Source of the DNA: Psammoneis japonica
Taxonomy: Eukaryota
Assembly (NCBI GenBank): GCA_008632985.1
Contig: QPGO01000178.1
Span: forward strand, 124,001-147,687
Direction of reading: 5' to 3'
DNA length: 23,687 bases
Each line of letters begins with the position of its first letter. Within the stretch, counting starts at the first letter, position 1. This document shows, piece after piece, positions 1,717 to 23,687 of the stretch. The notes below the pieces were generated by a model. It worked only from the letters and a program-made list of their open reading frames with translations. It was not told the DNA's origin and ran no database searches. Made by a program: the position numbers and the translations under genes.

Positions 1717-1981
1717 GATCGAAAAGTCCTTTCCTGGAATGAATGACCTTGGTAGAATCAACGACAGTAAGAGATGCTAATTCTCATGGAGTTGCCATCG
1801 TTGATCGTTGATCGCCATTTCATGCGTGTTCTGACATCACATGACACAACGCCCATCCGCCGCTAACAAAATTAATATACAATATATATGAATTCGAATA
1901 GTAAAATTATTAATTGCTAATTTGCGAACTGCGAAATTCAAAAAAAGATTTCAGATCTCTCAAAAGATTCGCCCACTTTTA

Positions 1982-2039
1982 CTTCCTCCGGCAAGCGACA
2001 ATTGTCCACGGCGAAACACCGTGCCATTCTTTTTGGGCC
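1982..2039 (+). repeat. Left terminal inverted repeat
   Basis: cttcctccggcaagcgacaattgtccacggcgaaacaccgtgccattctttttgggcc; its reverse-complement match is at 3644-3701. Confidence 0.92.
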
Positions 2040-2191
2040 GTATAACGTAGCACCGCTTCTACGCAAGTAGTCTCGGAGGGAAAAGCACGACCCGACATCA
2101 TCAAAACACATGGAACCGCTGCCGCCGCAGCAACGATGAGACATGTCGCTTGTGCCGTCAACTGCAACTTCATGTGCGATGATGCCACATC

Positions 2192-3453
2192 ATGGACCCT
2201 CCTCCACTGCATCCAAGCATCCACTCAATTGGTGCGTTGGTGCATGTGGCTCCGGAGCACCGCACGGGATGACCCGACAGTGAAGGTGGAATCGGCTGCA
2301 TCACGGAATTCAACGCTGCCAATGGCCCAGTGCATGTGTGGCACGCAATCAACAACAGTCTCAGTTTTGACATTGTTGTTCCAGAGAGACTCACCCCAGC
2401 ATCATTGGCTGCAAGTGCTCATCGGCAATCACCAAATGAAACTTGACGGCCATTGACATTGATGACCAAACACAATGAACAAGCTGGACTCCGTGGCGTC
2501 AATGTTGGAAACACGAGAGCGACAGAAACACAACAAAGACCTGAAGGTGTTGCTGGCGCTCTTCTAAGTTTGAAAGATTGGCTGATGAGCGGTGGCAGGA
2601 GGAAGCATCCAGTGGTGGTGGAGCACCTCAGACAAGGTTGATCGAAGGAGAAAGGGTGGATGTGCCAGGCGGAGGCTGCAATTGCTGGCCGTCCGGCCCC
2701 AAAACCGAAATCTCATTTGTCGACACCGGAGAGAAGGCTGCTGTGTGACACCCAAAACACCGCAAATGCATTGACTCCATCTGAGATCCACACAGGGGCA
2801 AATCCCCTGGCTGATCATGCACGCACTTGGGGTGCAACAAAAAAAGACAATTGGCAGGACACACAAACGTGTTCTTGAGCAAAACAACAGTGCATTGAGG
2901 AAGAAGCAGCGTGATGCTGGTGTGACAGCATTCAACTCCGACGAAAAGTGGGAGCAGGTGTGTGCTCCACATGAATGCTTCAAGTGGCATCAAAGAATCT
3001 TGAACTCTGTTCATTGTGTTTGTAGTTGCTGTCCCAAGGGAACAATCGCCCGGTCATTTGTGCACCACAGTCAAGTGGTGAATGCCATTTTTCAGTGTGA
3101 TGGTTGGGGACAATTTTGCAAAGGATTCGCGATCGCTTCACTGTGGAATTCGGAAGTTTTTTCAGCATGTTTGCAACTCGGAAGAGACGCAGAATCCCAC
3201 CAGAGTCATGGAGGTGATTGAGCTCCTTGATCTGGTGGAACAGAATCTGTGGCACCCGACGCCAGATGTCATTGGGGACGGGCACAATCCGGCAGACTTC
3301 TTGAGTGAGAATGAGCTTTCAATGTTGGTGAACAACATGGGCCACTCGTGTGAACATGCTGAAGTGCATCTCATGGCAGAGCTGGAACAGAATTGGGAGC
3401 TGTTCGATGCCGCACACCTGGAGCAGTGCTGTTTTGGAAGGTGCTGTCTCTAG
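2192..3453 (+). pseudogene. Mariner-type transposase remnant (N-terminal and C-terminal parts, catalytic core apparently deleted)
   Basis: Frame from ATG 2192 (MDPPPL..DSEGGIG) with in-frame TGA at 2270, 2444 and 2639, and a frameshift in the A-run near 2840. It continues into an HTH-like WGATKKTIGR..RKKQRDAG segment, joined near 2990 to a C-terminal-like TIARSF..QVVNAI..LHCGIRK segment. No DDD/E triad seen. Lies inside the TIRs. Confidence 0.6.
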
Positions 3454-3643
3454 AGAATTGATGGCATGCACTTAGAACTGGCACCAGAGTGTCTGTGTTG
3501 TCCTGCCATTGCATCAAATTGGCACTTTGTTCCGTGGTCGGGCCAAAAGGAGCAATTCAATGGCAAACTCTAGAAGGTTTTGGTGGTGGCACGAAATGGC
3601 ACGTGAACAAAAACATGCAAAAGCAGCAAAAGCAGCACCACGT

Positions 3644-3701
3644 GGCCCAAAAAGAACAACACAGTGTTTCCTTGTGGACAATTGTCGCTTGCCAGAGGAA
3701 G
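3644..3701 (-). repeat. Right terminal inverted repeat
   Basis: ggcccaaaaagaacaacacagtgtttccttgtggacaattgtcgcttgccagaggaag; two of the 8 differences from the left TIR are isolated CpG transitions. Confidence 0.92.
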
Positions 3702-3949
3702 CATCATGGCAAAGCAAGAGTGCTGCACTGTGCCGCACACTCTGGCCAGTGACACACAAAATTGGCCACTTTCAGTTTCACGCGTGGAAGCACGGCAAAA
3801 GTTTTTCTGCTTCGGGCAGTGCATTTCAATCTGATCTGCTTCCGACATGCGCACACAAGCAACAGTGTCAAAACCTCATCACCAGCATTGTTTTGCACAC
3901 AAGTGCGAGCCATTTCTCATTTCATTCAGCTCCTGGCCACAAATTGTTT

Positions 3950-5870
3950 GTGGCTGATTTTCCAAGCTGCTGGCTGGAGTGCCGGTGCACTCATTTGTCT
4001 TTCCTCATCATTGACCAAAAAGCATCAACACTGACGCGATCTCTCTCACAATTGTGCATCATCAGACTGGCTCCTCTTGGACATGTGATCAAAGGTTTTC
4101 CTGCTTCAGTTCTCTCAGAAGAATCATTCTCAATGTCATCAACAAGCATCGGAAACACAATGTTCAAAAGCAGGGTCGTTGCTCATCTGCACACTCCCCT
4201 GGGCAATGCAGCTCCCATGGGTGTCAATGTCCACATTTCCACCAATGTTTGTGTCTGACAATTCCTTGCAGAGGCAAAATCATTCATTCCTGCCTCTGCA
4301 TCTCTGCTCCATCCTCAATCTGTCCATCCTCTGCCGCATCGTGCACACCTCTGGCGATGTTTTTTGCATCTCTCAACGGAGCTCCCAATTCTGATGCTGC
4401 GCCAATGCTTTCTGACCAAGGCTGTTGTTTTCCCAAATTCCATGACACTCACTTTCCATTTCTCTGAGTCACCTCCATTGTTTGGAGCAGCCAGGGCTGG
4501 CTCGCCTTGCATGTCACTCACTGCAAGATTGACCAAATTTGCTCCAACAACAAGGGCGGCACTGATGACAGCCAATGCGTTTCTTTCCTTTTGCACAATC
4601 CACCATGCAACAAGGAGAAAGCTGGTGAAAAATTTCCAGGAGTGCAGCAACAGATTGAAAATGCTTGCCAGCGGTGTTCCTCAAATGCCGTTTTTTGCTT
4701 CTGCTGGTTGCCCCCTGCAAAACAAGGAGCAATGAAAATTTTGATTTGTTCATCATGTTTTAGCGCACATGTTCAATGCATCATCCATGAACCAACCATG
4801 GTTCAGGATGGATTCAGAACTCTGTCACTCTTGTTCTCATTGTCTTGTTTGTGTGACTCGCTCCTTGTGTGACCATCAGGATCATCAGGCAAGGCACTCA
4901 AGACGAGCTTGAAATGCAATGAGTTGTTTCTTGCACCAGCAACCAATTGCAACAGTTCCATGTCTTGTGTCAGGATCAAGGAAGAGATTCTGAGAGTGTG
5001 CAAGTCTCTGCTCAAGGTGTTTGTGGATGCTCATGCATGAGAACAGAAACTCCACTGTCTCTGCCAATTTAATGCAGCAGCCCTCAAAGAGAAACCAAAA
5101 AAAAATGCGCCTTTTGTGTCATTCAGCCATCTTCCCTCCTCATGCTCTAAGGGACTCAACTGCAAACATTCTGATCACAAATCTGACAAGAACCCTTCCT
5201 CTGCTGGCAGATCACAACCCTTTTTACACAACAGCAAAATGGGGCTGCAACACTCAAGTTCAATGGACACACAACAAGAAGCAAAGTGCAGCAGCATCTT
5301 TCCTTCAATGTTGTGAGACCAAAAACATGTGGCTTTGTCATCATCATAAAAAAGCTTTTAGTTGCTGCCTTTTGTGCCTGTGTTTCAAACAATTTTGTTG
5401 GTGTTTCGTTGCTGTCCCTGTCATCATCACTGCGCTTGCTGCAAAGCTGGCTGCAGTGGCTGGCTCCACCAATTTGATCAGACCTGAACCATCCAACAAA
5501 GAATGCACCCATGCTTTGTCTTGAAGTCCAAACAAATGTGATGGACTGCCAAGGTTAGTGTTGGAATGTGTCAGACCAAAGAAGTGTGTGCTGCATTGCA
5601 AGTTTCGTGAAACAATGCCACACAAAAAAGGAGACGAGAGAGCATGGCATGCTCTTTGTTTTTTCTGCAGAAATGAGATCTTCCTCCATGTTCCAAGTTT
5701 TCCTTGATCCTTTTTCGGCATGTCATCCAGGAGGGTGTCTCTGACCTTCGTTTAAAAAACAATCCAGGACCCTCGCTTTCTTGCAATGACAGGAGGCACC
5801 GGGGTGAGGTGTTTGAGAAAGCACGTTCGTTTGTGCAGAGCATTTTTGAACCAGGCCTGCGGGGAGCATT
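3950..5870 (-). pseudogene. Degenerate hypothetical protein gene(s)
   Basis: Protein-like segments in shifting minus frames (SKRSDDDRDSNETPTKLFETQ; LSPLEHEEGRWLNDT; LAETVEFLFS..LEQRLA), downstream of a C/A-rich leader-like stretch at about 5900-6080. No family recognised; limits approximate. Confidence 0.3.
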
Positions 5871-6443
5871 GACCACTTGTCTGTTCGTGTGTCGTTGCAG
5901 GTTGGTGCTGCACGGTGTGAATGCAGGGCCCTGCTGTGCTTCGAAGTGCGTGCAGTTGGCAATGGTGTCGTGCCGGTGCATGCTCGTGTGCCATGCGGTG
6001 TGTGATGTTGTGTGGGCGGTGTGTGCATGGGTTGTGTCGGTGGATGGTCAGACGGTTGTGACGTTGTGACCGTTGTCAACTGCAGATGGCGCCGAGCATG
6101 GTGACGTGGATCGCCGTTGTGCCAGATGTTTCATGTCGAGTTTGGGGCAGTGCCGCAGAACATTTTTGCTCGTGATTGATCATTGTGTGATGCACATGGT
6201 TGCATGTTGAATGCAGATGCATTTCTGAAAAGCTGTCACGTTGGAGCCTGTTGCATCAAGCAAATCAGAGTCTGGATCTGGAAGGCAGTGTGACGTGTTT
6301 GCGTGTGGAACAGCACGATCGAGGGCATGCAGATCCTGCTGGGTTTTCATGGAACGTCGACACAGTTTGTTGTTGTTGGCGGCAGACAGAGAATCTTCTG
6401 CATTGGGTGCATTGTCATCATCGTAACTGTGTCCAGTTGCGCA

Positions 6444-6842
6444 ATGGCTCGCGTCAAGCAAACCGCACGCAAAAATGCCGGAGGTGTTGTCGGTCGTAAG
6501 AGGTTGCGTGGCAAAGCGGCGAAGGTTGATTCCAAGGCTGCCGGAAGGAAGAAACGTCATCGCTTCCGCCCCGGAGTCGTCGCGTTGCGTGAGATCCGGA
6601 AGCATCAGAAGTTGACGGAGTTGTTGATCCGGAAGGCACCGTTTCAGCGGCTTGTTTGTCAAGTGGCTGGTGAAGTGACGAGTGAATTGGGAATGCAGGG
6701 GGTGAGATTCCAGTTGACGGCCGTCTTGGTGTTGCAGGAGGCTTTGGAAGCGCATCTGATTGGATTGCTTCATGACAGCAATCTTTGCGCTGTCCATGCG
6801 GGGCGTGTGACCATCATGCCGAAGAATCTGATGTTGGCTTGA
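6444..6842 (+). pseudogene. H3: Divergent histone H3 variant, mutated (premature TGA at the R128 position)
   Basis: [67 protein letters not shown] matches the H3 tail and histone fold. Lesions: Y54H and Y99H (CAT at 6603 and 6753), S57L and S86L (TTG), R72C (TGT), R128* (TGA), R129C (TGC). Confidence 0.93.
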
Positions 6843-7201
6843 TGCACTCATGGCAAACATTGCCAGGCAGAAGAGAGAGGTTGGCGGCCTCTGGTTGTTG
6901 GGCAGCGAGGAGGGACTTCTTGCGTGGTTGAGACGCAGGGATGTTGTTGCGTGTTCGGATGCATTGCGCAGTGTTTAAGTTGGCGGTGTGCCAGATCAGA
7001 GTGTGTGTTTGTCATTTGTTGTGTGTGTTTTATGGTGTTGCAGTTCCAGCAGTTCTGGCATTAAAAAGTTGCATGGATCGTTGCCAAGCAATGTGCAGCA
7101 TTGTGCAGTTATGATGAATGGAGAAATGGATGTGCGCAGAGGTGCAGGGTGGGCCGCGGGCGCGGCAAGAGTCCTTTCCGCGCAATGTCCAGAGTGAGTT
7201 G

Positions 7202-8040
7202 TCAATCATCGCAGGCTTCGAGGGTGTCTGGGACGTCCTGCTTCACCGGACTTGCGCCGTTGGAGGCTTTCTGTTTGCCATCCTTGTCGTCTTCGACTGC
7301 GTGGCCAAACTCGTGAAGGGCGGTGTTGACTTTGTTTGGGCCACAGTGCAGTTCCATGGTTTCTCGATCGGTGCAAATGTCATCTTGGGTGCTGTCCGGG
7401 AAGCTGCATTGCATGACATCCATCGTGCAGGCGAGGGTGAGGTGGTTTCCAAGGTGAGCATCGCCTGGCCCGTTGACAGGAGTGAGGTCGGACCCGACGT
7501 CGCAGGGATTGTTCCACTTGAAATCTCTCTTGACAACTTCGTTCAGGACGTTGCAGAGGCGCATCACCCATTTCCTGCGTGGTTCTGGCATGTTCAACTT
7601 GGGGTCTTTCAGGACCCGGACCATGAGGGGCCAGGGCGTTTCACACACCTGGCTTGGATCGGATTTGGATTCGCTCTCTGCCGACCACACACAGATCGGG
7701 TTGCAGGCGCTGACGAGATTTTTTACGAAGTGAATGCCTGCAATCGACAAAATCTTGGTGGTCTTCAAGGCGTCCCACCATGGCTTGGCGAAAGGTGGCA
7801 TCGTGGTGGAACAGTTGCAACTGATGAGCCTTGCGATGATTTCTCCTGATCGAGTGCCGAAATGGTTGATGTGGTTTCTGCTTCTGGGTTTTTTTTGGTC
7901 GGAGATTCTTTGACGTCGGTGGCCACCTTGAAGTTCTGTCTGCGTTTGAGCGGCCTGTGGGTCGGCGTCTCACTCTCAGAAGGTGATTTCGATTTAGCAG
8001 CCGTTGACTTGGTGCTTCACTTCTTCGGATCGTTCGGCAT
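7202..8040 (-). pseudogene. Hypothetical protein with S/K/T-rich N-terminus and globular C-terminal domain
   Basis: ATG 8040 MPNDPKK*(TGA)STKSTAAKSKSPSESE..., then one frameshift into the 199-aa ORF 7202-7801 (FAKPWWDALK..KWVMRLCNVLNE) with protein-like composition. Family not recognised. Confidence 0.5.
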
Positions 8041-8127
8041 GGTGATGGTGGACGGGGCAGCATCGGGTGTGACTGTGGAAGCGGTGTTGCTGTGGCTTCT
8101 TTCGTTTTGTGGGAGGAGAAATGTGTG

Positions 8128-8772
8128 ATCGAAGAAGGGAGGGTTCGCAAATGGTGAGGAGGAGGCACAAATGGTTGCATGGGGTGGTTTGTCCAAAGTG
8201 CGGAGGATTTGGAAAAGAGGCAATTGCGTTGATCGTGACATGACTGGTTTGCAATGGGTGGTGGTTTGTCCGCAGGAGAGAGATTTCGCAATTTTGACAA
8301 TGGCTTGATTGGCTCACAAGGGGTGGTTCATCTGATGGAAGTTGGGTTTGCATGCATGGGGTTTTGCAAGGGGTGGGTTGTCTGATGAATGGAAGGTTCT
8401 CAAAGGATGCAGGGGCAATTGTGGTTTGTTTGAAGAACAAAAAAGGCATGTGTTGCTTCCAAGGCACAAATCTTGTGGTGTGTCCGAAGATCGGAGGGTT
8501 GGGCAAAAGTCGGTGAAAGGCACAAATGGGTCACAAGAGGTGGTTTGTCCGAAGAAGGGAGGGTTCGGAAATGAGGAAATTGTGATGACTCTGAAATGAC
8601 TGTTCGGCAAGATGTGGTTTGTCCGAAGAAGGGAGGGTTCGCAATTGAGTCAAAGGCACAATTGGTTTGTCGGGGTGGTTTGTCCGAACAATGATGGGTT
8701 CGCAATTGTGCAAGCAAAGGACAAGTGTCTTGCAAGGGGTGGTTTGTCCAAGGAACTGCAGGTTTTTCGCAA
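8128..8772. repeat. Degenerate tandem array, about 11 copies of core GGTGGTTTGTCCGAAGAAGGGAGGGTTCGCAA
   Basis: Cores at about 8130 (partial), 8183, 8260, 8322, 8372, 8421, 8475, 8539, 8614, 8674 and 8738; period about 48-77 bp. 8540-8567 and 8614-8641 are identical over 28 bp. Confidence 0.9.
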
Positions 8773-9072
8773 AAGAGTCATGGTCCACAATTGTTTTGCA
8801 GGGGGGGGTGTCTCGGCGGACAGCGCACCGGCAATTTTGTGCTGCACCTGCACAAGCACGGCAAATTTGCCGGGAACTGATTGTGTGTTGTCATGGTGCC
8901 GTGGGCCTTTACGGTGGTGCTGCAGGCACGGGCATGGTCGCACCGTTGGCAATTGGACTGGTGGCAATGTGGGTGTGTCGACACATGGGAGTGACAGTCA
9001 CAATGGCTGTCGAGTGGGGCAGGCACGTGTGGCGTTGTGTGTGGGTGGGACAAGACGCCTTGCCGGAGGTGC

Positions 9073-12269: not shown

Positions 12270-13171
12270 TAAATTGTTGAACTCTCCGGCTTTCATGCGG
12301 TGCCCGTGTGACGTGTTTGCTCCAATTGCACTGGCATGGCATGTTTGAAATTGGTTTTGTGTGACAGGTGGTGTCGGAGTTGCGTTGTGTGGTTCTGTCT
12401 GGTTTGGATTCGGAGGGTGCTTGGGGTTTGGCGAGAGTTTGTGCTGTTGATGTTTGGGCATGGCAGGGTCAATGCGGTCAAGGCAACGGTGTGTGGCACC
12501 TCAACAGTTCCAAGTCATTGGTGTTGGTGGCGGAGGGTGGTGGAGGACACAAGAGGGGCAACGGATGCACGTGCATGTGGCGTCTCATGGCGTGGCATGT
12601 TGTTGCGGCGGGAATGTTCTGCGCGACATTGTGAGAGATGATGTCATCACAATGTTCACATGTAAATTGTCCCATGTGCATTGCAAAAGTGGAAATGCTT
12701 CACACAAAGGAGGTTGCAAGAAAAGTTCAGCATTTGCCCTGACAATGAATTTGCCAATCAAATTCGTTTTTGATGACATGCGAAGGGTGCATTTAAGGAA
12801 AAGACAAAAACCGAATCACAACTGTTGGTGTCGATTGTTTGGAAACTTGCTTTGTGTACGTGCAGTTTTCACTGCAGTTGCAGCAATTGTTGGGGGCAAC
12901 AAGACCATCATCAGGGCTTCTCTCTGTGTCTTGCTGCAGAAAATTGCACTTCATGGCAGCTGCTGCAGCAACCACTGCACAGCACCGGTGCTGCAGTGCT
13001 GTGGTGCGGTGTCGCATGCATCCGCTGCAGTTTGCAGCACAGACCAGCAAGTGACAAGTGCCACCGAGACAACTGTTTTTGTTGGCGTCTTCGTGACAAG
13101 TCATTGCTGTCTGCATTGCAGTGTGGTGGTGGCACTGTGTTACAACAGGTGGTTTGCAGTGCAGTGCAACA

Positions 13172-14026
13172 ATGGTTCGTGCGAGTCGCAAAGGGACCAC
13201 ACAAGAACTTCAAGAACCACATCCAGTTGGCAAGAATCGCCAACAAGACAATGCTCCGGCAAAGGTCATGAGGGCTTGTGAGGCATCTCGCAAATGCTTT
13301 CACAGACACAGCAGGGGCCTGCCTTGATTGCGTTGCAAGAAAGGAATGGCATTGAAGCGATTAAAAAGGAAAGCATCTGAGCAAGCGCAACATGCCACAA
13401 GTGGTGCAGATGGCACAGAATGTGATTTGTTCGAAGACTTTCGAGTTGATTGCACGCATCCGGAAAAGGTAAAAAAACACGGAAGTCATTGTCAATGGAC
13501 CTCAATGTTGCCTGTGGAGGTTGATGGTGTGTCACAGAAGGTCACCGTGAAACGACATGACAAGAACGCCACGCACAAGTTGTCCATTCTGTCCAAGAAG
13601 GGTGTCATGGAAGATCACATCTTGGCAAAGTCCCTTCCTGTGAAGGACGTCATTGATGGTGACGCCCTTCACATGGTGGTTGCATTGCATTGTTTTGAAA
13701 AGGGCAGCACTGTGGGAGTGCACGTCGGAAAAGAACGGAGCGTGAACGCTTCTGAGTTGGAAAAAGCCTCGGTGCGTGTCCAAAAACGGCGCCGGCACTT
13801 TTTGAAACAGAAGGTGGTCGGAGATGTTGTGACAGGAATTGATGCCGTAGGAGGCGTTGCATCTGGACGTCCCTTGCACCTTGGAGTGCATCTTGTCAAC
13901 GACCCTGCTTTGTCTGGCGGGAAAGCGAGCAAAGCGAACTGTGAAGTAAAGACGGATGGCACCGTTGTCACTGCGAAAAGAGTCCATCCGGGACAAGAGT
14001 TGCTTTTCCATTGTGATTGGCAGTGA
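13172..14026 (+). pseudogene. SET-domain protein (putative lysine methyltransferase), mutated
   Basis: ATG 13172, in-frame TGA 13325. SET-like motifs VVAL..FEKGSTVGVHVG (F.KG..IG.Y.G), LHLGVHLVND..KANC, and VVTAKRVHPGQELLFHCD (A.K.I.PG.EL..DY), with the expected tyrosines read as H or C. Confidence 0.75.
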
Positions 14027-14029
14027 ACA

Positions 14030-14685
14030 TGTTTTAAATTAAAGTGTGGTTGCAACATCACACAGTGTGGCAATTGGCGCTCCCGCCCACAAAAAGGACA
14101 ACTTGGAGGTCCTTGAGAACTTCGCATCCAATGGCAGAGACAGCTTTGGTGGAAAGCATGAAGGCACACATGAGGCACAGCCACTTTGCAGTTGTCGTTG
14201 TCGTCCTTTTCAAAAGGCATTCTGCACAAGCAGCATTCTTTGCCAGCAGCTCCCATGGTTGTCGGAAGGTCGCTGAAGCGCCGATCTTCACAGACAATGC
14301 GTTTGATGCAATGAAGTTTGCTTGGATGAGTCTTCTTGCAAGGATCACATCGGTTGATGGGGGGGATTCTCCGGAGACGCCTTGGTTCCGAAGTGTCAAT
14401 TGGAGTGCGTTTGTTGCATGGAACCCAAGCATCTTCCTTGCAATCAACCCACCTTGTTTTTGTCCTCACGTTGTCTTTCCTGAATGCCTTGGGTCCTTGC
14501 AGTGCTTCAGCTTCGTGTTTGATTTTTGCATTTCCGTGTTCTGCCAGGATCATTTTTCTGATGGGAGGCCGTTGAGACTTGAACGAAGCATGTTTGGTGG
14601 CAGCCCAATGGACACGCTGCAGACGCGTTCCAGCCCCAGGTGGGAGCTCGTAGTGCTGACGTGTGACAACAATGATTTTTGTCAT
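14030..14685 (-). pseudogene. RING-H2 finger protein (putative E3 ligase), convergent with the SET gene
   Basis: CCLC-x19-CLHAFHQSCLCHW..SCPFC at about 14088-14235 fits C3H2C3 spacing. The track ORF's extension to 13669 is probably read-through antisense to the SET gene after loss of the stop codon. Start and end approximate. Confidence 0.75.
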
Positions 14686-15377
14686 AGTCGCATGTTTCGT
14701 ACGCAGATTTCCACGTGTGACATTTAAAAAAATTGTCCAGACTCGCTGTTTTGCGAAGCCCCAGACGTTTCACATGACAAATTTGTAGAAACAACAATGC
14801 GCTAGTTGCATTCTTCAATGTCTGAAGAATGTGACTGGCCAAGTAAAAAATGATGCACTTCAATCATGTGCAAGTTTGTGCGTTCGCAAAATTGCCTCAT
14901 TTTCTGTTGGCGATCATTGACATTTTAATTGCCGCACAATTTTGCTGCGGAGCTCGCACGCAGAAGTCTGCAGGCCCAATGTCACACGGATTCCCACCTG
15001 CATCTGGAACGCGTCTGCATCTCTGCCTTTCGTTTCTTTTGTTGTTCTTTTTTTTTAAGCCGTTCCTGCTGCATGATGTCAGAACACGGAGTGGAACTTG
15101 ACTCCCCGTCAGTTGTTGTCGTTTCACGACGTTGTGACGATGCTGTCATGTTGATGTGTCACAAGAAAGTGCAGCAGTCAGTGAGAGGTTTTAGGGTTGG
15201 TGGCACTGTCATCCGTTCTTGTGCTTCCTGTCAGTGCGCTGCCATTGTGGAGTTGTGTCCGTCAAATGAGTTGGGGTGTCGTGAATGGGTGCACGTCCAT
15301 TTTGTGCGGTTCATCAGTCTTCGTCTGGGAGTCATCCGGCGGCAAAATGATGCTGGCAAGGAGTGCGCGAACAGGCG

Positions 15378-15655
15378 CTGTGACTGCATCACTGGAGGAC
15401 AACTGCAGCCATTGTCCAATTGGCTTCATGTGAGTTTTACATCCGAGTGTGGTGCAATCAAACTTGGATTGTGTGCCATTGTCACCATGAGGAGAGCCCG
15501 CTCTCTGCCAGTGCCACAGCGCTGTAGAGAGTGGGCACTGTGACTGTGCGTGCAGCATCACTGGAGCACAACAATTGCAGCCGTCACACTGTTGGCTTCA
15601 CATTGGTTTTAGCCATCCAGAGGGCTGACTCAAATTGGTTTGTGCTGTGTCGTCA
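15378..15655. repeat. Degenerate direct duplication, about 169-bp period
   Basis: gcatcactggag..tgcagcc..ttggcttca..gtttta..catcc..tcaaa..ttgg occurs from 15386 and again from 15555. Confidence 0.7.
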
Positions 15656-16142
15656 ACTGGCCAGCACTGCTTTGCTGCACTTGCAGTGCTGCATGTTTCT
15701 GATGTGAACGCTTCCAACTTGGCCGTTATTTTGCGTGCTTCATTTGTTCAAAGTGCACCGTTGTGATCTTCAATGCCGTCATAGGATCATTGTTGCGTAA
15801 GCCACAATGTGGCACATGTCAGCTCAGTGCTGCAATGCAATTTACAATGTTCAACACAAACAATTCTTGTGCTGTTTTTGTCTCTTCCTTAAATGCACCC
15901 TTCTCGCATCATCAAAAACGATTTTGATTGGCCGGTTCATTTGTTAAAATGTCTGTCGGGACGGCACTGTGCCAAGACAATCGAATCAACAAAGTTTGTT
16001 CATAGCACGCATGTCTAAATGTCTCGAGTTGTGCTTTGACAACTTGGTGAATTTGCCAAATTATGGAGGGTGTCATTCAGTGCTGTGTTGTGGTTGTGTG
16101 TCGAGCTGCACAACATTGTTTCACGCATCGTCCACAATGTTG

Positions 16143-19100
16143 TCAATTGCTCTGTTCTGTCAATTGTCTGCAACGATGGCAAGCTTTGTTCATGTCCCAA
16201 CTGTCCTTTTTCCAGTTGTGGTCTTTCGATTGACTGAAGCCAGCAAAAAATGCTTCTGCAGATGTGTCAGGCTTCAGATCTGACACACGCTGAATGGATT
16301 CCCATTTTTGCATTTCAAAGCAACCTGTCAAAAGCAATTGCCTGTTTTCTGGCAATTTAACTCTGCTGCTTCCCACATGCAGTTTGGCACAAGTGCAGTT
16401 GGCGACTTGTCGATGTGACATTGCGAGTGTCTCATGGTCCAAAGTCTGTCCCTTGGCTTTGTTCGCGGTCACGGCGAATCCCATCTCTAAAGGAAATCAA
16501 GGCGCAACGATGCATTGCGATGGAAGACATCCTGGTCCACCCGGAATCGGAACGGGTTTCGGTTCCTTGGTTCGCATTGGAGAAACCGGCATCACCACCT
16601 CCCTTTTTACGATGGATTTGTCTCTCAGCAATCGCAATGTTTCACTGTCAAAATCTTCGGGATCCAGTTTGATGTTTGCCATGATGGGTGGCTCGGACAG
16701 TGTGACGACGGTGCCAGCCGCACCATTCTGCTCAGTGTAAAAGTCGACGAGGTCCACGTCATGTGGATTGCCGATCGTCAAAGAATGGCACTTGAACTTT
16801 CTCCCGTTTGCCATCTTGAGATGTGCGTCAATCTTGCTGGCAATGCACCCGGGACCACCAGCAACAAAGTGCTCATGGAATGCCATGTCCTCCATGGCCT
16901 GTGCTTCACAAGCCTGGGCAGGTTTCTGTTCCCATTTTGTTGGTTTGGCAGCCAACCATCGAAAGACAACGGCACCTGTGTGCCTTGCAAATCAAACCGC
17001 TGCCTCGTGGTTCAACGTGTGACGTTCATGATTGGCAATGACAATTGTCGGAGCCGTCAACCATGGACTGTTTGGCTTTGCAAAATCGTCTTCCAAGAGC
17101 AATGGAATCGATTTGCAGCAATCAGGATCAATCCGTTCATGATGATGGAATTTGGACAACAGCTCCGTGTGACGTGGATCCTCACAGCGCAGTTGTTGTT
17201 CGAATTCGATCCATTTGACCGATGCGAATGTCTCACACCCAACGCGACATGGAGAACCTTCTTGCAATCGTGCCTTCTGCTCTTTGGTCCACTTCTTCGC
17301 TCTTTTGTTGCTGCGAACCTTGCCCGCTCTCTTCCATTTGTTCCTGTTGCCCGTGGAGAGGAGTGTTCACCCGGATGTTTCCAACATTTCTGCATCTCGA
17401 ACCCAATTCTGTCTTTCCCTTTCCATTTCTTGATGGTGTTTGTAAGCCGCCACTTCCATTGAGGCACTGGTTGACGAAGGTCCAGCCACAATCGGTCCAT
17501 TTTGGTCCAGATCCCCAGCAAATGAGACAGGAATGCCTCCAAAAGGCGTGCCGATGTTTCCAGTGAATTGCTGCAAAGTCCAGCTCAATTGTGCAAGATG
17601 CCACAGAGCCTGATTTCCGACTTCGTCTACAAAGAGCAATGTTGGATCCTTCAACAACGACTTCAATTCGTTCAATTGATTTGCGGTGAGATCAACCAAC
17701 TCTTTCATTCTCATTGCCGTGTTTTGGCCCAGAAAGATCAAACAAGCTGTTGACGGTCCGCCGATGTCAATCGCGTTTGTCCCATTGAAAGCCGTCCAAG
17801 GAATGTTCCTGGATTCAAGAATGGACAGATCAACAGCATTTTTGAGACAAAGGCTTTTGCCTGTGCCTGCCGCACCGTGCACCAACACCATTGCCGGCAC
17901 ACTGTTGTCGGGATCTTCAGGTGCTTTTGCGCATGCCGAATGAAGGTTGAACACTTCCCAGTGTGCAGGCGCAAACAATTCCTCTCGGCTTTTCATCGTC
18001 TTCTTTGTCGCTTCGTGCTCCGTGTTCCGCTTTCCAGGCATTGTGCCAAGGCCACCTTCAGTCGATGGGTGTTTGACAGAAGTGTTTGTGTTGTTGTCCG
18101 GCTTGCAATCTCTTGTGTCTTTGCTCATTTTCTGACACCATTTGATTGAGTCGTCTGCGGTGTCATTGTGAAACACCAGTGACTTGTTCCAGCTGTTGTG
18201 GTGCATGGGAACAAGTCAGGCGTTGTGGTTGCCACGCCAAGGGTTCGTGGTGTGACACACAGACACCATGTTGCGTCCGTCTTCCAATGCTTGCAGGATG
18301 CTCTGGTGACTCTTCTCTGACAGCTTGCGATTGACGGTTTCGAACACCATCTCATCAGTTTCGTTTTGCTCTCGGTTTTTTAAACATTGTTCGATTGCAA
18401 AATCCGTGGACCATCGTTGCTTTTGTTCTTCGGCCCAAAGCATCCGATTGCGTCCACGACACTGAGCCAGCATCCACTCATTTAAAAAGCTCATGTGAAG
18501 CCCTTGCATTCCAGTGTGCATGGCAAAGAGTCTCATTTTAGACACGACAGACTGGTCGGTTCGCAGTTCTTCCATCCATTTCGCTGATGCAGCCCAATCA
18601 TGTTCACAACGGTTCACGTGAGATGACTCATGGCATTCCGTTTCTGGACGGCACTCACACAAATGGAATCATGCAAACTTGTTGGCTTTTGCTTTCCACT
18701 GGCGGCATTGCATGCTGGTGCGAAGTTCATCACACGGTTCCTTGCCCGGATGGGGGGGGATGTTTTTCTGTCAAGATGACCATCTTCTGCTTCTTGTCCA
18801 GCACTTGAGCACACTGACTTGCGACAGGAAAACTCGGCGCAAAGGCAAAATTTTCGTCTGTGGTCCTCCCTTCTCCTTGACGGACACGAACGCTTTGCAC
18901 TTGTTGCGGTTCAACATGCGCAGCTCTGTGCCACGATTCCCGCAAAACGCAGCTTTCGGAATCAGATGTTTTGTTTCCAAAGTGTCGCCATTGGGTGGCT
19001 TCTCTTTCAACGTGAACAAACGGACGGTGCCCAGATTTGCCTGCATCAAATCGTCTTCATTGCACTGATCCGCGTCATCTTCCTTTTTGTCTTCCGCATC

Positions 19101-22100
19101 TTCTGCCGATTCCTTCTTGTCTCCTTCTGTCTCATCTTCTTCATCACTGTCTTCACACCCGTCGCACGAATCGTCAATGAACATGCTGTCTTCCAAGTCG
19201 CGTCTCTCTCTTTGTTCCAACAGCCGTTCAAACAGTCATTCCATGCGCTGTTTGCCATCTTCCTCCATTTGGATTAGAGTGCTGTGAGCCCGGTCGCAAG
19301 CCGGATTGCTGCAAACAAATTTCTCCAAAGCAATGATGCTCGGCAGACCCAGCAAGTCGGCACACATCTGGCAATCGGACAACTCCATTTGCAAGTTCAT
19401 CTTGTTCATCACACGTTGGAGGACTTGTTTCACACTGCGTCCGGAGGTTCCTGCATTGTCTGCCTTGCTGGCACACTGCTTGGCATGACTGATGGCTTCT
19501 CGAAACAACACTGCGCAATGTTGCAAGGGATGCTTGCATTTGCCCATGCACAGGCATGTGTAGAAGATGGCTCCTTTCGCTTGTCCAGTGCTTCCCAACA
19601 ACTGACAGTTGTCATGAGAGCCGGTGCAGCAGGAGATGACGACATTGAACATGGAAACATTGCCATTGCCCTCCTTTGCAAAGTCGAGGAGTTCCAAACA
19701 AAATTCAGTCAGCTTCTCCTCCATCAGTTTGTCGAGAGCCATCCACAAAGATTCACGATTACGACACGTGTCCGAGACGCCATCTCGCAACGATGCCAGC
19801 ATTTCATCTTTGGACATTTCTCCACCATTCAACCGACACTCAATGTCATCCAATTGCACACGCGGTCTTTTTGTCTCCCACACTGTCACAGAATCTTCCA
19901 TCTTTCTTTCCAAAATGTCGATGGTCTCGTGCCGTTCTGGTTCGTCGTTCCATTCCATCTCTTCTGCATCACACAGATTGCAGTCTTCCTTTTCTTCTTT
20001 TTGCACCACACCTGCTGTTTGACTTTCCTCAGCCCGACTGCCATCGTCTTCTTCTCTTTCAAGCACCTCTTTCTTTGGCACCAAACGCACTGCTCCCAGT
20101 CTCTTCTACAAGGCCGGCTGGTTGGGACAAGCGACACCACTGCTGCCCATTGCACCTTGTGGCAAGTCAGCATGTGATCGTGCATTTGTTGTTGGCCTCC
20201 TTGCCCAGAAGTTTTTTCTTGCACTCGTTCATGCTGCACGTGTCCTTCTGGTTCCATCACTTCTAACAGATGCAATCTTTCTGGCAACGGATTTCGATTC
20301 ACCCGGTCCAAGACATTCTTTGGAAACCGCAATCGTCTCTCTTCTTTTCGACAATGGCTGGCATGCCACCAATCGAAAAGCACTGGCCTCGGCAAAGAGG
20401 ATTGATGCATTCGATCCAGTGTCTCTGACAACGCTTTGCAAACTTCCTTCAAATGCGCAAAATGCTGCATTGCATGTGAAACAACAGGTGGCAATGCAGA
20501 GTTCCTTTTTTGTGATCTTCCACAACAGCAATGTGCCCAAGACAATGGCCAAAAATGCCCTTGTTTGTGATTTAAAAATGTCAAGTCTTTCGACGTGACT
20601 CACTCATGTGTCGAGAAAAGAAGTTGTCCAGCGGCATTCCCAAAAGCAATGCACAGACATCGTTGATCAACGACTGACTCTCTGCCACAAACGCGACGGG
20701 GTCTTCAATTCCTTTAGAGGCACTGTCCTGTCTGGACAAACCAGGCAAATCGATGACTCCTGCGCCAACTTCCGCAGATGCACATCTCATGTTCTCCATG
20801 AACTCTTCTCCACCACGACCGCACCCCGAACTCTCATCAAAGACCACCCAGAAATGTCTTGTTGTTGACAGTTCGGAAAGTCGTCCGAATGGCATGAGGA
20901 TTCCCACAGTCGTCAAATGACAATGTCATGAAACAAGACGGAAGGCCCATTCTTTTTGACATTTCAAGAGTCATCGATGTCAACTTGCTGGATTCATTGC
21001 AGCCATGTGACGTGTCCTTTCCCATGGGTCGAAGATGTCCCAGATGTTTCTGCTGAAAGTCTTTTGCTGCTTTTCCACCCGGATTTGCCACCACTTCATC
21101 AAGCTTCTTCAATTCGGTTTCGTCTCTGAGCAGGCTTCTGATCATTGCAGCAGACTGTTTGCTGTTTCGGACGTGAGAATTCACTTGAAAAATTGCTTCG
21201 AACCGTTTCTTGCTGTCGAAACAGCAAGCCAACAACCTCCTGTCCAACGAAGGCACTCAAGTGAACTGTCGCAAAAGATGGTTTCGTTCAATGTAGTTCA
21301 GTTTTCCCAGTGCTTTGTCGCACATGCGTCCAAACATGAACCCGTTGGGGAATGTGGTCGCCACCTCAAAATCACTTGCAGCAAATTCATTGATCGGATC
21401 ACTCTCCCGGCAGCTGTCACACATTCCATCTCTCTCGGTGGGAAGCGACGGCATTGACATGTCATCGTAATCATCGCATGGTTTTATGTCATCCAAAGGA
21501 GAGTGGTCTTCCACGGCATCATTGTCTTTGTCACTTTCCAACATGACATCCTCCTTTTCACTGTCATGAACGTTTGCAGGGTCAGGCTTGCAATCTGAAT
21601 CTGCCAAACACTTTCCGTCTGCATCCTCGCCCTCTTTCCTGCTTGACGATTCCGACTCTGATGCGGAACTTCTGGAATCGTTGTTGCCGCTGCTGCCGAC
21701 AGACCAATCAGAATCATCAGAATGTTCCCCATCGCTTTTAGCACTCACGTTCTCTTCTGCTTTTTGTCCCTTGTGCCGACATGCTGACTGTTTAAAAGAT
21801 CGAAGACAAGCCATTCTCATTGTGATTTCATCTTGATGAGTTGATCCCGCACTGTCCACAATGCAGAAAAATCTCATGCTGTCACTGGGTTTTTGTGTCT
21901 CCACTTCGTCCCGTTCTTCTTCATCGGCATTGTCAGTGTTCAAAATTTCTTCCGATTGTGCTTTTGCAACATCAGAGCCGATGGCATCTTCATCTTGTAA
22001 AATGGCTTTGTCCTTCACGCGACAAGCTGAATCTTTTGTGTGCTGCACAGCGATGCCTGCATTGTGCTGCACTTTGGCACAAGAAACGCCAATGGAGCAA

Positions 22101-23687
22101 TTGCCTTTTCCCCACAAAATGGCATTTAACGCCGTTGCCCATCCACACAGATTCCAAGCACGTCCAAAAATGTCATTGCGTCCGAAAGCTTCCTTTGCCA
22201 GTGTGTCAAATCTGCCTTCAGGGTCCAAGAAACAGAGCCGTGACACCGACTTCATAAAATTAGGATGAAACATGTCTTTCACACTCAAAATCTCTCGGAT
22301 CGTTTCTGGAGCATCATGGGCGAACAAAATGCAATTGCACTTCAAACAGCTGTGATCGAAATTTACATGGCCACGGCGATTCGAGGAAATCTTGATCGTC
22401 GATGCAAACAACCAATTGCGTGATAAAATGAGCTGTTCATGCAAGTTCAATGGCTCCAAATCCAACCGTCTGAAATCCCCGCGGCTGTTGACAGTTTTGG
22501 TTGTTCGGCCTTTTCTTCTAAACACTCATGGCACGTGGGACACAAGTGAGTGAACTCCTTTCCGGCATCATCTGTGTCTGCCAATTCCAGATGAAGATGG
22601 CGCCATTCACCAACAGATTCTTGGGACTCGTACATGGAGTGCCCTTTTTTCAAATCAATCGTTTTGAATTTGCCATTTCCATCTGCCAGAATTGCCACAT
22701 GACCCAACTGTTTCTGCCATTCCAACTTCTGCAAGTCTTTGTCCGCACAAAATCGCAAGGGCCCCAAGATTCCATTCTTCAACCACACCCTGGTGCACTT
22801 GATTTTGGGTTCCGCAGGTCTTTCCAACATCCGAATCCCGCATGCTCCACAAGCAATCATGCACCCGTTCATGTGTGTGAATGACACAGATTCCTCACTC
22901 ATTCCCTCTTTCGAAATGTCACTCACAATTCTCTTGACATCCACCTCTTTTCCGTCACATTTCTTGTCATGTTCTCCATGACGATCAAACTGAAGACAGC
23001 CTGAATTTACATGATGCAACACAACCTCAGAACATCTTTGTCGAAATGCTCAAAGAAACCATCGTCTTCAGGATGTTCTTCCATTTCTTGCAATTTTTCC
23101 ATCAAAAATGCTTCAGACACGTGGTCCGAATCCAAGCCTCGAATCTCCTTTTCGGCTTCATTTAATTCATCCTGTCGTCATTGCAATGCCTGCACGGCTT
23201 CACGTTGCAATCTCTCCTGATGTTCCTCCTCCGACTCCTTGCTTCGCAGATCTGTTTTGTGTGCGCTCCCGTTGCAACCTCTCCTCACGTTGGTCCTCTG
23301 ACTCCGTGTTCCGCCGGTTCGCGCTTTCTGCGCCGCCTCTCGTTGCAGCCTTTCCCGATGTTCGACCTCCGACTCTTTTCTCTGCCAATCCGCTTTGTGT
23401 GCCGCCTCCCATTGCAGCCTCTCCTCATGTTTGTCCTCCGACTCTGTGTTCTGCCGGTCCGCTTTCTGCACCGCTTCTCGTTGCAGCCTCACCCGACGTT
23501 GGACCTCCGACTCTTTGTGGAGCTGACCCGATTTGTGTGCCACCTCCCGTCGCAGCCTCTCCTCACGTTGGTCCTCCGATTCTGTGTTTTGCCGGTCCGC
23601 TTTCTGCGCCGCCTTGCATTGCAGCCTTTTCCAACGCTGGACCTCCGACTCTTTGTGGAGTCGATCCGTTTTCTGTGCCGCCTCCTG
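16143..23687 (-). pseudogene. Helitron RepHel transposase (HUH Rep plus PIF1 helicase), 5'-incomplete, broken by stops and frameshifts
   Basis: N to C: charged 23-aa repeats; Cys motifs CGACG and CPTC..PKLSTAAG..LEPLNLHEQLILSR (DUF6570-like); Rep motif 1 GLPSCFMTLSFDD (about 20910-20950), DPVAFV; motif 2 KGIFG..VVEDHKKGTLHCHLL (HUH at 20488-20496); motif 3 AKGAIFYTCLCMGK (about 19540-19580); PIF1 GAAGTGKS (about 17851-17875), LLFVDE, PFGGIPVSFAGDLDQ, QQLRCED, FPLEMGFAVTANKAKGQTLD, LHVGSSRV. Confidence 0.93.
23190..23687 (-). repeat. Coding tandem repeat, 69-bp (23-aa) unit with 138-bp periodicity, in the RepHel N-terminus
   Basis: ESEVQRRVRLQREAVQKADRQNT / ESEDKHEERLQWEAAHKADWQRK; ggacctccgactctttgtgg at 23501 and 23639. 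About 7 units, continuing past the window edge. Confidence 0.92.

Follow-up and report, generated by a model that had tools for sequence, protein, structure and literature searches.

Genes and elements of the window

The window, by which we mean the whole analysed stretch of 23,687 nucleotides, contains a host gene and, beside it, a gene-poor transposon island. The gene fragment at 552..1490 (minus strand) belongs to glycoside hydrolase family 35, the beta-galactosidases (Pfam PF01301, E 4.9e-42), and has a normal TA content. The side of its start codon points toward the island. Its closest named homologues all come from diatoms, with 44–50% identity, and unnamed matches reach 60%. Judged by these relatives, the host is most probably a diatom. 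The island comprises a Tc1/mariner-like element, a second inverted-repeat element, a Helitron and DNA of unrecognised nature.

Element 1 (1982..3701) is a 1.7-kb Tc1/mariner-like element with inverted terminal repeats. Its 58-bp ends, 1982–2039 and 3644–3701, exhibit 86% identity, and it is flanked by TA on the left (1980–1981) and by CA on the right (3702–3703). No Pfam family and no transposase domain was found in any of its frames at E ≤ 0.05. The inverted repeats and the TA/CA flank agree with the mariner named in the earlier note; a transposase was not found. The second inverted-repeat element (12744..15941) carries repeats at 12744–12834 and 15851–15941 with 81% identity, and its TA observed/expected ratio (o/e) is 0.13. 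It includes a weak RING-finger frame (13672–14769, minus strand; zf-RING_2, E 1e-4, under Pfam's cutoff) and a very high-copy repeat (14620..15015), with a summed contig depth of 64,892 in the bin 14341–15007 and many loose ends at 14622–15015. Scanning the window for tRNA genes and Rfam families gave no match, including at the high-copy repeat at 14.6–15.0 kb. Six-frame read-throughs of 1980–6200, 6843–12604 and 12600–16201 searched with Pfam yielded no transposase, and the weak RING only; the ORFs of at least 75 aa contained no transposase either. The long frame at 9687–11927 (minus strand) has zero homologues in the word-indexed search. Tyrosines of a SET motif had been described as replaced by His or Cys; that observation falls away, since Pfam finds no SET domain in ORFs of at least 75 aa or in the six-frame read-throughs of 1980–16201.

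A histone H3-like pseudogene or variant lies at 6444..6842 (plus strand; Pfam Histone, E 5.1e-27). The ORF has a 5-residue insertion and an early stop (TGA) after ...LMLA, and contains no Tyr at all.

The largest element, judged by its motifs and homology, is a Helitron (Rep/helicase) transposon that is now a pseudogene. The near full-length Rep/helicase frame of about 2,400 codons (16150..23687, minus strand) has 396 homologues at E ≤ 1e-3 and a TA o/e of 0.066. A Rep nuclease with the HUH and two-Tyr motifs (...GTLHCH... and FY..L(C)MGK) is joined to a PIF1-type helicase (Pfam PIF1, E 2.9e-9) in one long protein. The frame is colinear with 43 full-length homologues of 1,800–3,441 aa (tblastn); residues 1161–2422 of homologue P0135 align to 20039–16182 in one frame. 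It is interrupted by 10 in-frame stops (9 TGA and 1 TAA), and the frame shifts in a few places. Tandem repeats at 23190..23687 (minus strand; self-BLAST), with a TA o/e of 0.0, encode the repetitive N-terminal part, and P0135 residues 34–191 align to them in several registers. The word-indexed homologue search with the N-terminal Helitron ORF returned 1 match.

Loss of TA from the island

In 500-bp windows, TA o/e is 0.37–0.58 over positions 1–2000, 0.18 at 2001–2500, and 0.00–0.23, mostly below 0.1, from there to the window end. From about 2069–2090 onward the overall ratio is about 0.05–0.08, against 0.51 in the host part (1–1981). The 21.6-kb domain at 2090..23687, depleted of TA and enriched in TG and CA, holds 103 TA compared with 1334 ± 25 in 200 mononucleotide shuffles, and it continues past the window end. 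The TA desert described in the earlier note is thus real, as is the absence of TA from 3573–4760, where TA occurs at 3571 and next at 4761. Each sub-element of the zone has a ratio of 0.00–0.13, with the exception of the high-copy repeat, which at 0.28 lies above its surroundings.

The TA share of dinucleotides falls from 3.72% in the host part to 0.48% in the depleted zone, the TG share rises from 7.10% to 10.59% (+3.5 percentage points) and the CA share from 7.78% to 9.15% (+1.4 percentage points). Strong depletion affects TA only (o/e 0.05); no other dinucleotide shows it, AA, AT and GA included, and AA o/e is 1.0–1.9 in the window. G+C is about 0.50 in the zone and about 0.47 in the host part. 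CG o/e is 0.41–0.57 in 2090–6293. The H3-like ORF (CG o/e 1.08) and the tandem repeats (1.05) are not depleted of CG, yet are depleted of TA just as much. TG is in excess at 5–16 kb and CA at 19–23 kb, an asymmetry that does not follow gene orientation consistently.

Ahead of the desert, the final TA sites occupy 2041, 2043, 2048, 2060 and 2068, and the following one is at 2565. At the host TA rate, the 2068–2565 gap without TA has P = 6.8e-9. The edge of the mutated domain lies at 2069..2090, and the transition takes place within about 30 bp. In element 1, TA o/e is 0.90 in 1982–2089, where the left ~90 bp retain TA, versus 0.05 in 2090–3701. The edge had been equated with the start of the first transposon; it does lie in that element, but about 90–110 bp inside it and not exactly at its end. 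The gene next to the island is untouched, as is the DNA upstream of it; in this window the TA loss is regional and leaves that host gene out. As regards confinement to transposons, the view comprises a single edge and 2 kb of host DNA; the zone includes the Helitron, the two inverted-repeat elements and the DNA of unrecognised nature, and over long stretches no transposon protein can be recognised and the summed contig depth is low.

Runs X1–X3 represent one sample and are possibly the window's own assembly data. Each of the 30 bins has k-mer contigs of X1, and the exact-word contigs of this run contain 0.81 of the words sampled. Summed contig depth, which is not equal to copy number, is 57–81 in 4336–5669 and 15675–19009 against 61 in the host gene, and 300–1000 in element 1 against about 60. 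It is very improbable that the depletion is a sequencing or assembly artefact, with G or C called systematically in place of a modified base at TpA. The possible identity of the runs with the assembly's own data leaves some room for it, and the sequencing platform is not on record. The X1 contigs, however, cover every bin at host-like depth in parts of the zone, and among the rows listed at the window's own copy the contigs show no TA alternative. A lesion confined to one strand and not yet fixed would leave TA and TG mixed; no such mixture is seen, each site being either TG or CA, as expected of fixed mutations. In the alga Bigelowiella natans, considered below, the corresponding changes are heritable differences between lines (10.64898/2026.01.13.699255).

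Differences between copies were also observed. Of the 40 listed among 1511, 35 lie in the zone. In 16 of these 35 the window has TG or CA where other copies have CG, and in 7 it has TG or CA where they have TA; 19 are of the CpG type, and pairs of TG with CA are ambiguous between ancestral CG and ancestral TA. Because 16 of the 35 listed zone differences are TG/CA versus CG, CpG decay contributes much of the between-copy divergence among the listed differences, and it supplies part of the TG/CA excess.

Direction and context of the changes

Comparison of the Helitron frame with its homologues uses 464 conserved columns. The frame retains the residue in 338 of the 447 non-Tyr columns, but in 2 of the 17 Tyr columns; 12 of these 17 are changed to His (6) or Cys (6). 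The reverse changes are absent, with conserved His to Tyr in 0/17 and Cys to Tyr in 0/8. Six intact homologues given the same treatment keep from 14/19 to 18/19 of their Tyr and have His or Cys at 0–2. In 84 homologues pooled, 763 of the 916 Tyr columns are kept, with 23 His and 6 Cys (29/916, against 12/17 in the window; Fisher p = 5e-14). The 28 related metagenome loci keep 283 of 317, with 6 His and 1 Cys (7/317), and the Tyr-loss signature is absent from 28/28 of these environmental loci.

The catalytic Tyr pair of Rep is located at 19548..19562 (minus strand). The first Tyr is kept (TAC, 19560–19562) and the second is now Cys (TGC, 19548–19550), as had been claimed. Tyr occupies both columns in 42/42 homologues. 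The motif translates as FYTCLCMGK, compared with the consensus FYLIPYxGK. The stripping of tyrosines from a transposon protein is therefore borne out for the Helitron, one catalytic Tyr included. Y54 and Y99 of the H3-like ORF likewise read His (CAT) in translation, DNA and alignment to solved H3 chains, which have Tyr at both positions (E 2e-42). The helicase example fared differently. The change of LYV to LHV was proposed, and LHV is present at 16382, but His is native in 13 of the 21 aligned intact relatives and Tyr in 5, so the site is no evidence.

The two arms of element 1 offer a comparison within the window: 3/3 aligned TA of the unmutated left arm read TG in the mutated right arm. The Helitron Tyr columns, the H3 CAT codons and these arms bear out the proposed polarity. 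The TA loss is a mutational process with the direction TA to TG and TA to CA. It removed about 90–95% of TA, its changes are fixed, and the two strands are equally hit, Tyr to Cys and Tyr to His occurring 6 times each. In the predicted translations, coding sequence is ruined by Tyr to His or Cys, Val (GTA) to Ala (GCA) and Ile (ATA) to Thr (ACA) substitutions; the changed codons of the Helitron are Tyr (TAY), GTA and ATA. At codon position 2, 9 of 11 T to C candidates in the Helitron now end in A (GCA, ACA, TCA). Changes of A to G at codon position 1 after T show a weak trend, 6/12 versus a background of 175/671.

It is highly improbable that the composition is native, the elements having always avoided TA through codon usage, foreign origin or selection against UA in RNA. 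Genomes generally under-represent TA, the host part itself being at 0.51, and low TA without Tyr loss does occur among related Helitron loci (L008 0.23, L006 0.27, L022 0.27). Across the 28 related loci the ratio ranges from 0.23 to 0.76 and is at least 0.5 in 22, so no relative comes near 0.05–0.07. The Tyr test contradicts native composition, since 12 of the 17 conserved Tyr, including the catalytic one, are now His or Cys; the 10 stops and the loss of H3 Y54 and Y99 also speak against it. Moreover, non-coding DNA and both arms of unrelated elements are depleted too, and the depletion stops abruptly. Hypermutation was also considered for L006, L008 and L022 and rejected, the low TA of these loci being a matter of codon usage.

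The neighbours of the surviving TA sites define the context. With Helitron DNA of other organisms as baseline, which is not ancestral to the window DNA, the surviving xTAy counts fit two independent hits on the A of either strand (chi2 16.3, 12 df), and the hazards by 3′ neighbour are 2.71 for T, 1.40 for C, 1.01 for G and 0.30 for A (T > C ~ G > A). The 3′-neighbour model is better than a single rate (LR chi2 113, 3 df). Survival is 0.52 for TTAA and 0 for ATAT and ATAC. Among the product trinucleotides TGC (x1.75) and TGT (x1.31) are enriched, and TGA and TGG are not.

This context bears on two further explanations. In one, T:G mismatches from 5mC deamination recruit a Pol eta-type polymerase, which mis-inserts G opposite T at TA during error-prone patch repair. 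CpG decay does operate on this DNA, as seen in the 19 of 35 listed differences and in the low CG o/e of 2090–6293, and during antibody hypermutation the errors of Pol eta concentrate at WA motifs, with A to G as the outcome. However, WA includes AA, which is not depleted. The near-saturation of one dinucleotide and the clean two-strand 3′-neighbour model better fit an enzyme motif, and the H3-like ORF and tandem repeats lost TA equally without CpG depletion. We regard patch repair as quite unlikely.

The other, that transposon RNA was edited from A to I by an ADAR-like enzyme, reverse transcribed and re-inserted, is scarcely credible. The preprint on B. natans remarks that ADAR favours U before the edited A (10.64898/2026.01.13.699255). 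The element types contradict such an origin, for the mutated DNA belongs to DNA transposons and a Helitron and includes their inverted ends and non-coding flanks. The two strands are equally hit, and AA is kept. ADAR prefers a 3′ G and tolerates U or A as 5′ neighbour, and the 3′ order observed here differs from that preference. To our knowledge, ADARs occur in animals only.

A proposed adenine deamination and known systems

The reading we favour, with a probability of about 0.8, is that a diatom transposon island was hit by a regionally targeted TpA to TpG/CpA process, via adenine deamination. The enzyme would deaminate adenine to hypoxanthine in DNA at the motif 5′-T-A-N-3′, with the 3′ neighbour preference given above. 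Hypoxanthine pairs with C, so that A to G would be fixed at replication. Deamination on the opposite strand would read as T to C, i.e. TA to CA. Targeting would follow silent or foreign chromatin, not sequence repeats as such. Ordinary CpG to TpG/CpA decay acts on the island too and raises the TG/CA excess. A role in defence we infer from what gets hit.

Since TpA is self-complementary, A-directed and T-directed chemistry give identical outcomes, and the sequence itself separates neither. The data can be rewritten as 5′-N-T-A-3′ to N-C-A with the 5′ preference A > G ~ C > T. The T of TpA might then be modified in silent chromatin, for instance hydroxylated, and miscopied or misrepaired as C, the opposite strand changing from A to G. 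Dinoflagellates, in which thymine is replaced by 5-hydroxymethyluracil preferentially in some dinucleotides, offer a parallel. We know of no thymine modification that is strongly T to C mutagenic, and a thymine-directed route seems unlikely. Adenine deamination is also what the authors of the B. natans work favour (10.64898/2026.01.13.699255).

The earlier note knew of no characterised pathway with this chemistry. That statement is overtaken by a 2026 bioRxiv preprint on mutation accumulation in B. natans (10.64898/2026.01.13.699255); the signature is not unprecedented. The preprint describes TpA to TpG/CpA hypermutation in integrated viral DNA. In two viral insertions 230/231 mutations were A to G or T to C; all of these hit TpA, the rate was about 1000x that of the background, and the larger target region is single-copy. 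DDE and reverse-transcriptase domains were over-represented among the TpA-depleted CDS. The authors propose a TadA/ADAT2-like deaminase and cite DNA activity of amphioxus and trypanosome ADAT2 (10.64898/2026.01.13.699255).

Both cases share the TpA target, the two products TpG and CpA, clusters poor in TpA and rich in CpA and TpG, TpA-depleted genes of transposon type and, probably, the regional targeting of foreign or silent DNA (10.64898/2026.01.13.699255). Ordinary genes are spared there, and one adjacent host gene is spared here. The host there is a chlorarachniophyte (Rhizaria), whereas here it is a diatom, judging from the relatives of the host gene. New mutations in lines were recorded there; the window displays the end state only. 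The main target there is half depleted (rho 0.45), whereas the DNA transposons and Helitron here are near saturation (0.05). The window adds the sharp edge beside a gene, the 3′-neighbour preference and the co-occurring CpG decay. The words "diatom" and "trinucleotide" do not appear in the main text of the preprint (10.64898/2026.01.13.699255), and our literature search found no report of the TpA to TpG/CpA signature in diatoms.

Other systems resemble the process in part. Fungal RIP is also a context-dependent transition hypermutation that leaves missense and nonsense changes in mobile elements and a dinucleotide signature. RIP, however, changes C to T, mostly CpA to TpA, which generates TA and makes the DNA AT-rich; here TA is lost and G+C is slightly higher, which confirms the opposite chemistry that had been claimed. 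RIP needs duplication, a sexual phase and a RID-type methyltransferase, whereas parts of the zone here have a host-like summed depth. AID/APOBEC enzymes are likewise polynucleotide deaminases with a short motif that mutate foreign nucleic acid beyond repair. They deaminate C in TC, CC or WRC on single-stranded DNA and give G to A or C to T, unlike the A:T to G:C change at TpA, which involves chromosomal DNA on both strands and no reverse-transcription intermediates. Deamination of 5mC also yields TG and CA and is active in the same DNA, but it consumes CG, not TA, and is unable to change a codon for Tyr to one for His or Cys.

In the substrate of TadA/ADAT2 a U stands just before the edited A34, and the tRNA of TadA itself reads U-A-C-G. 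Early adenine base editors evolved from TadA preferred Y-A-C. Both preferences fit 5′-T-A with a 3′ pyrimidine preference as seen here, although no natural enzyme of this family has been established to mutate chromosomal DNA in genome defence. The motif T-A with its 3′ pyrimidine preference, together with strands hit independently, sets a requirement for any candidate enzyme.

Genome defence by A:T to G:C mutation of DNA was not known from any organism before 2026, and the single report concerned one alga. A second, distant lineage with the signature, at saturation on transposons, would mean that it is not the curiosity of one species. Genome defence through TpA hypermutation may extend to more lineages than has been supposed. 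More tentatively, and with more doubt than confidence, diatoms and chlorarachniophytes might share an old chromatin-guided DNA adenine deaminase with the motif 5′-T-A-Y, a natural "adenine base editor" that disables transposons and integrated viruses by TpA erasure. If so, chromosomal adenine deamination would be a widespread eukaryotic genome defence beside RIP, APOBEC and DNA methylation, and the enzyme could be found by comparing genomes with and without the signature.

The genes common to carriers would give a comparative handle on the enzyme, and a natural DNA adenine deaminase would be of interest to the base-editing field. TpA observed/expected also offers annotators of algal genomes an inexpensive marker of silenced foreign DNA. 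It is a warning, too, against Tyr-free "proteins" predicted from such DNA: P0181 and P0189, for example, are products of pseudogenes.

TA loss and the contents of the island

The TA observed/expected ratio (o/e), computed in 500-bp windows, is 0.37–0.58 over nt 1–2000, 0.18 over nt 2001–2500, and 0.00–0.23, mostly below 0.1, from there to the window end. The o/e of TG and CA is 1.1–2.2 in such windows. From nt 2090 on, 103 TA are observed vs 1334 ± 25 expected from 200 mononucleotide shuffles. Between the host part and the depleted zone the dinucleotide share of TA falls from 3.72% to 0.48%, and those of TG and CA rise from 7.10% to 10.59% and from 7.78% to 9.15%. The TA depletion described in the earlier note is thus far beyond chance, and it extends to every sub-element. 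TAA drops from 8.3 to 2.4 per kb and TAG from 6.0 to 1.0 per kb, with TGA unchanged (20.8 in the host part, 20.3 in the zone); therefore all six frames are rich in long, meaningless open frames.

The host part carries a fragment of a glycoside hydrolase family 35 gene (nt 552–1490, minus strand; Pfam E 4.9e-42). Among its named relatives the nearest are without exception diatoms (Cylindrotheca, Nitzschia, Pseudo-nitzschia, Mayamaea, Epithemia, and Amphora), followed by plants at about 35% identity, which places the window in a diatom and not in Bigelowiella. The last TA before the island lie at nt 2041–2068 and the next at nt 2565, a gap with P = 6.8e-9 at the host rate. The edge is located about 90–110 bp within element 1, on the side toward the host gene's upstream DNA.

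Element 1 (nt 1982–3701, 1.7 kb) carries inverted ends of 58 bp, with TA next to the left end and CA next to the right one, and its part from nt 2090 has a TA o/e of 0.05. The flanks look as a Tc1/mariner TA duplication would after mutation of its right copy. Of the mariner named in the earlier note, the inverted ends and the TA/CA flank are present; a transposase domain is not detectable in any frame of the element. The following stretch, nt 3702–6293, has a TA o/e of 0.045.

An H3-like gene lies within the island at nt 6444–6842 (TA o/e 0.07). Five extra residues (GMQGV) interrupt its histone fold, the site of Tyr41 holds Phe, which some plant H3 share, an early TGA occupies an Arg site of H3 (a CGA to TGA-type change), and the gene has not a single Tyr. 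It may derive from a host gene that was captured, or be a variant that an element carried. The next 6 kb or so (nt 6843–12743, TA o/e 0.08) include a frame of 747 codons at nt 9687–11927 on the minus strand, interrupted by two TGA only. Neither Pfam nor the word-indexed homologue search gave a match for it, and it is a large gene remnant without an assigned family.

The second inverted-repeat element (nt 12744–15941, TA o/e 0.13) harbors a weak RING finger, and a repeat of very high copy number lies inside the element at nt 14620–15015. The summed contig depth in the bin of nt 14341–15007 is 64,892, with many loose ends. Scans of the window assigned the repeat to neither a tRNA nor an Rfam family. 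Its TA o/e of 0.28 is above that of its surroundings; the repeat may have inserted later, or may be hit less efficiently.

A near full-length Helitron-type Rep/helicase pseudogene occupies the minus strand from about nt 16150 to the window end (nt 23687), with a TA o/e of 0.066 over nt 16150–23100 and 0.0 in the terminal tandem repeats. Proteins of 1,800–3,441 residues (n = 43) align colinearly with it, and residues 1161–2422 of one of them (P0135) match nt 20039–16182 in one frame. Nine of its 10 in-frame stops are TGA. The SET domain proposed earlier was not found anywhere in the window by Pfam.

An artefact of sequencing or assembly is unlikely to have produced the zone. Exact-word contigs from the public run X1 contain 0.81 of the words sampled from nt 1–6000 and span 30 of 30 bins of nt 1001–21000. 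Their summed depth, which does not equal copy number, is 61 in the host gene, 57–81 over nt 4336–5669 and 15675–19009, and higher over repeats. X1 is possibly the assembly's own data, so that these figures represent internal consistency rather than independent confirmation. A lesion on one strand only would yield a TA/TG mixture, yet each site is cleanly TG or CA.

The edge inside element 1, and the depletion of DNA of low summed depth and without recognisable transposon features, suggest that a chromatin domain, rather than repeats as such, may be the target.

Direction of change

To read the direction of change, 43 full-length homologues were placed on the window by tblastn, and columns were kept if 15 or more homologues covered them and at least 60% of these carried the same residue (n = 464). 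The window retains the residue in 338 of 447 conserved non-Tyr columns and in only 2 of 17 Tyr columns. The 15 lost Tyr are 6 Cys (TGC/TGT), 6 His (CAT/CAC), 2 Phe, and 1 Arg. The reverse changes are absent, with Tyr at 0 of 17 conserved His and 0 of 8 conserved Cys. By the same procedure six intact homologues keep between 14/19 and 18/19 Tyr, with 0–2 His/Cys. Of the 89 homologues that cover three or more Tyr columns, 84 retain Tyr in at least 0.5 of them and were pooled, leaving out P0168, P0189, P0206, P0234, and P0262; the pool keeps Tyr in 763 of 916 columns, with 23 His and 6 Cys. Fisher tests gave p = 5e-14 and 8.5e-14.

Single sites agree with this count. Both Tyr of the Rep catalytic pair are present in 42/42 homologues, and the window reads TAC at the first and TGC at the second, the latter as the earlier note had it. 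The two H3 tyrosines, which we take to be Tyr54 and Tyr99, each read CAT, as also claimed there, and both are present in the aligned solved chains. Where conserved Val, Ile or Leu columns now read Ala, Thr or Ser, 9 of 11 codons end in A (GCA, ACA, TCA), as expected from GTA, ATA, and TTA. The left inverted-repeat arm of element 1, which lies outside the desert, retains TA, and the right arm reads TG opposite each of the three that align. These lines uphold the direction proposed previously, TA to TG/CA.

One example does not hold. The His of helicase LHV (nt 16382, minus strand), previously taken for a mutated Tyr, is the native residue of 13 of the 21 intact relatives that align there. For these 13, the native form of the helicase motif that is usually given as ..LYVA.SR.. 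is, in this Helitron family, ..VHVA.SRV...

The Tyr loss of 15/17 contradicts the possibility that the elements are TA-poor by native composition, as do 28 related metagenome Helitron loci. Their DNA has a TA o/e of 0.23–0.76, at least 0.5 in 22 of the 28, and they keep 283 of 317 Tyr, with 6 His and 1 Cys. The three lowest (L006, L008, and L022; o/e 0.23–0.27) show TG/CA excess yet retain the conserved tyrosines. Their low TA looks like codon-usage avoidance of TA, the reading suggested by the retained tyrosines, or like the process at its very beginning or in a mild form.

A second process contributes to the TG/CA excess. Methylated transposons are expected to undergo CpG decay. The CG o/e is 0.41–0.57 in nt 2090–6293, with a minimum of 0.12 in nt 5001–5500; the H3-like gene and the tandem repeats at the window end have values near 1.0. 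CpG decay is therefore uneven across a uniformly TA-free island. Among 1511 between-copy differences 40 were listed, 35 of them in the zone; of these 35, the window has TG/CA vs CG elsewhere in 16 and the reverse in 3, TG/CA vs TA elsewhere in 7 and the reverse in 0, and 9 are of other types. The Helitron pseudogene also has Arg to His/Gln/Trp and Pro to Leu changes. The low CG, the CG-type differences, and the Arg and Pro changes together indicate that CpG decay is also acting and explains part of the TG/CA excess. As a consequence, TG/CA pairs between copies, such as nt 2183/2184, have an ambiguous ancestor. CpG decay cannot explain the TA loss or the Tyr changes.

Strands, flanking bases and mechanism

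A sense-strand hit turns Tyr into Cys, and an antisense-strand hit turns it into His. The equal numbers of the two changes, 6 vs 6, bear out the proposal that both strands are hit.

Survival of TA, estimated approximately against a baseline of 22 ordinary Helitron relatives of other organisms, depends on the flanks: 0.52 for TTAA, 0.26 for CTAA/TTAG, 0.18 for GTAA/TTAC, 0.12 for CTAG, 0.10 for CTAC/GTAG, 0.07 for GTAC and for ATAA/TTAT, 0.03 for ATAG/CTAT, and 0 for ATAT and ATAC. A model that treats hits on the A of the two strands as independent events, whose hazard depends on the 3′ neighbour alone, fits all 16 context counts (Pearson chi2 16.3, 12 df) and is better than a single rate (LR chi2 113, 3 df). 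The fitted hazards are 2.71 for T, 1.40 for C, 1.01 for G, and 0.30 for A. Consistent with the model, the products TGC (×1.75) and TGT (×1.31) are enriched, and TGA and TGG are not.

We consider a targeted TpA to TpG/CpA process acting on the island to be likely, with a probability of roughly 0.8. On the preferred reading, the adenine in 5′-T-A-N would be deaminated to hypoxanthine on either strand in silent chromatin, and the hypoxanthine would then be fixed as G. The tRNA anticodon-loop substrate of TadA/ADAT2 has U before the A and a pyrimidine after it, resembling the T before A and the 3′-pyrimidine preference of the window. Thymine-directed chemistry at TpA would lead to the same sequence outcome, the site being palindromic, but we regard it as quite improbable. 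Error-prone repair of the Pol eta type at WA motifs is unlikely, since AA is not depleted and the parts undepleted in CpG are equally TA-free. RNA editing of the ADAR type is at odds with the kinds of element that were hit, with the strand symmetry, and with the neighbour preferences.

TG exceeds CA on the plus strand over nt 5090–16090 (log2 0.2–0.8), and CA exceeds TG over nt 19090–23090 (log2 down to −0.55). The asymmetry may reflect native composition, or a mutator that favours one strand in connection with replication or transcription.

Precedent and related signatures

The earlier note knew of no characterised pathway of this kind; a preprint of 2026 on Bigelowiella natans shows the process experimentally (10.64898/2026.01.13.699255). 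Of the 302 nuclear mutations in its 15 mutation-accumulation lines, 231 lay within two integrated viral regions, and 230 of these 231 were A to G or T to C, all at TpA. The rate there was about 6e-7 per site per generation, about 1000 times background, and the larger region has a single copy and is transcriptionally silent. DDE endonuclease and reverse-transcriptase domains are enriched in a CDS class with a TpA frequency of 0.0018, and an ADAT2-like DNA adenine deaminase was proposed by the authors (10.64898/2026.01.13.699255). The window shows a process of this kind in a second lineage, only distantly related, where it has reached saturation on DNA transposons. The words "diatom", "stramenopile", and "trinucleotide" are absent from the main text of the preprint (10.64898/2026.01.13.699255). 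Full-text literature searches found this preprint as the one relevant paper and no diatom report of the TpA to TpG/CpA signature, and the process is new for diatoms. What the window contributes beyond the B. natans precedent is the sharp edge of the domain, a rule on flanking bases, and the independence of the two strands.

Among the 150 best homologues of the Helitron protein, P0181 has no Tyr, with His or Cys in 6/6 Tyr-consensus columns, and P0189 has 0.2% Tyr, with His or Cys in 5/6. Both are only 30–37% identical to the window's copy, so Helitron families other than the window's carry the signature too, in some public genome or metagenome. Two further relatives of the protein, P0163 and P0270, also belong to the group with 0–0.2% Tyr.
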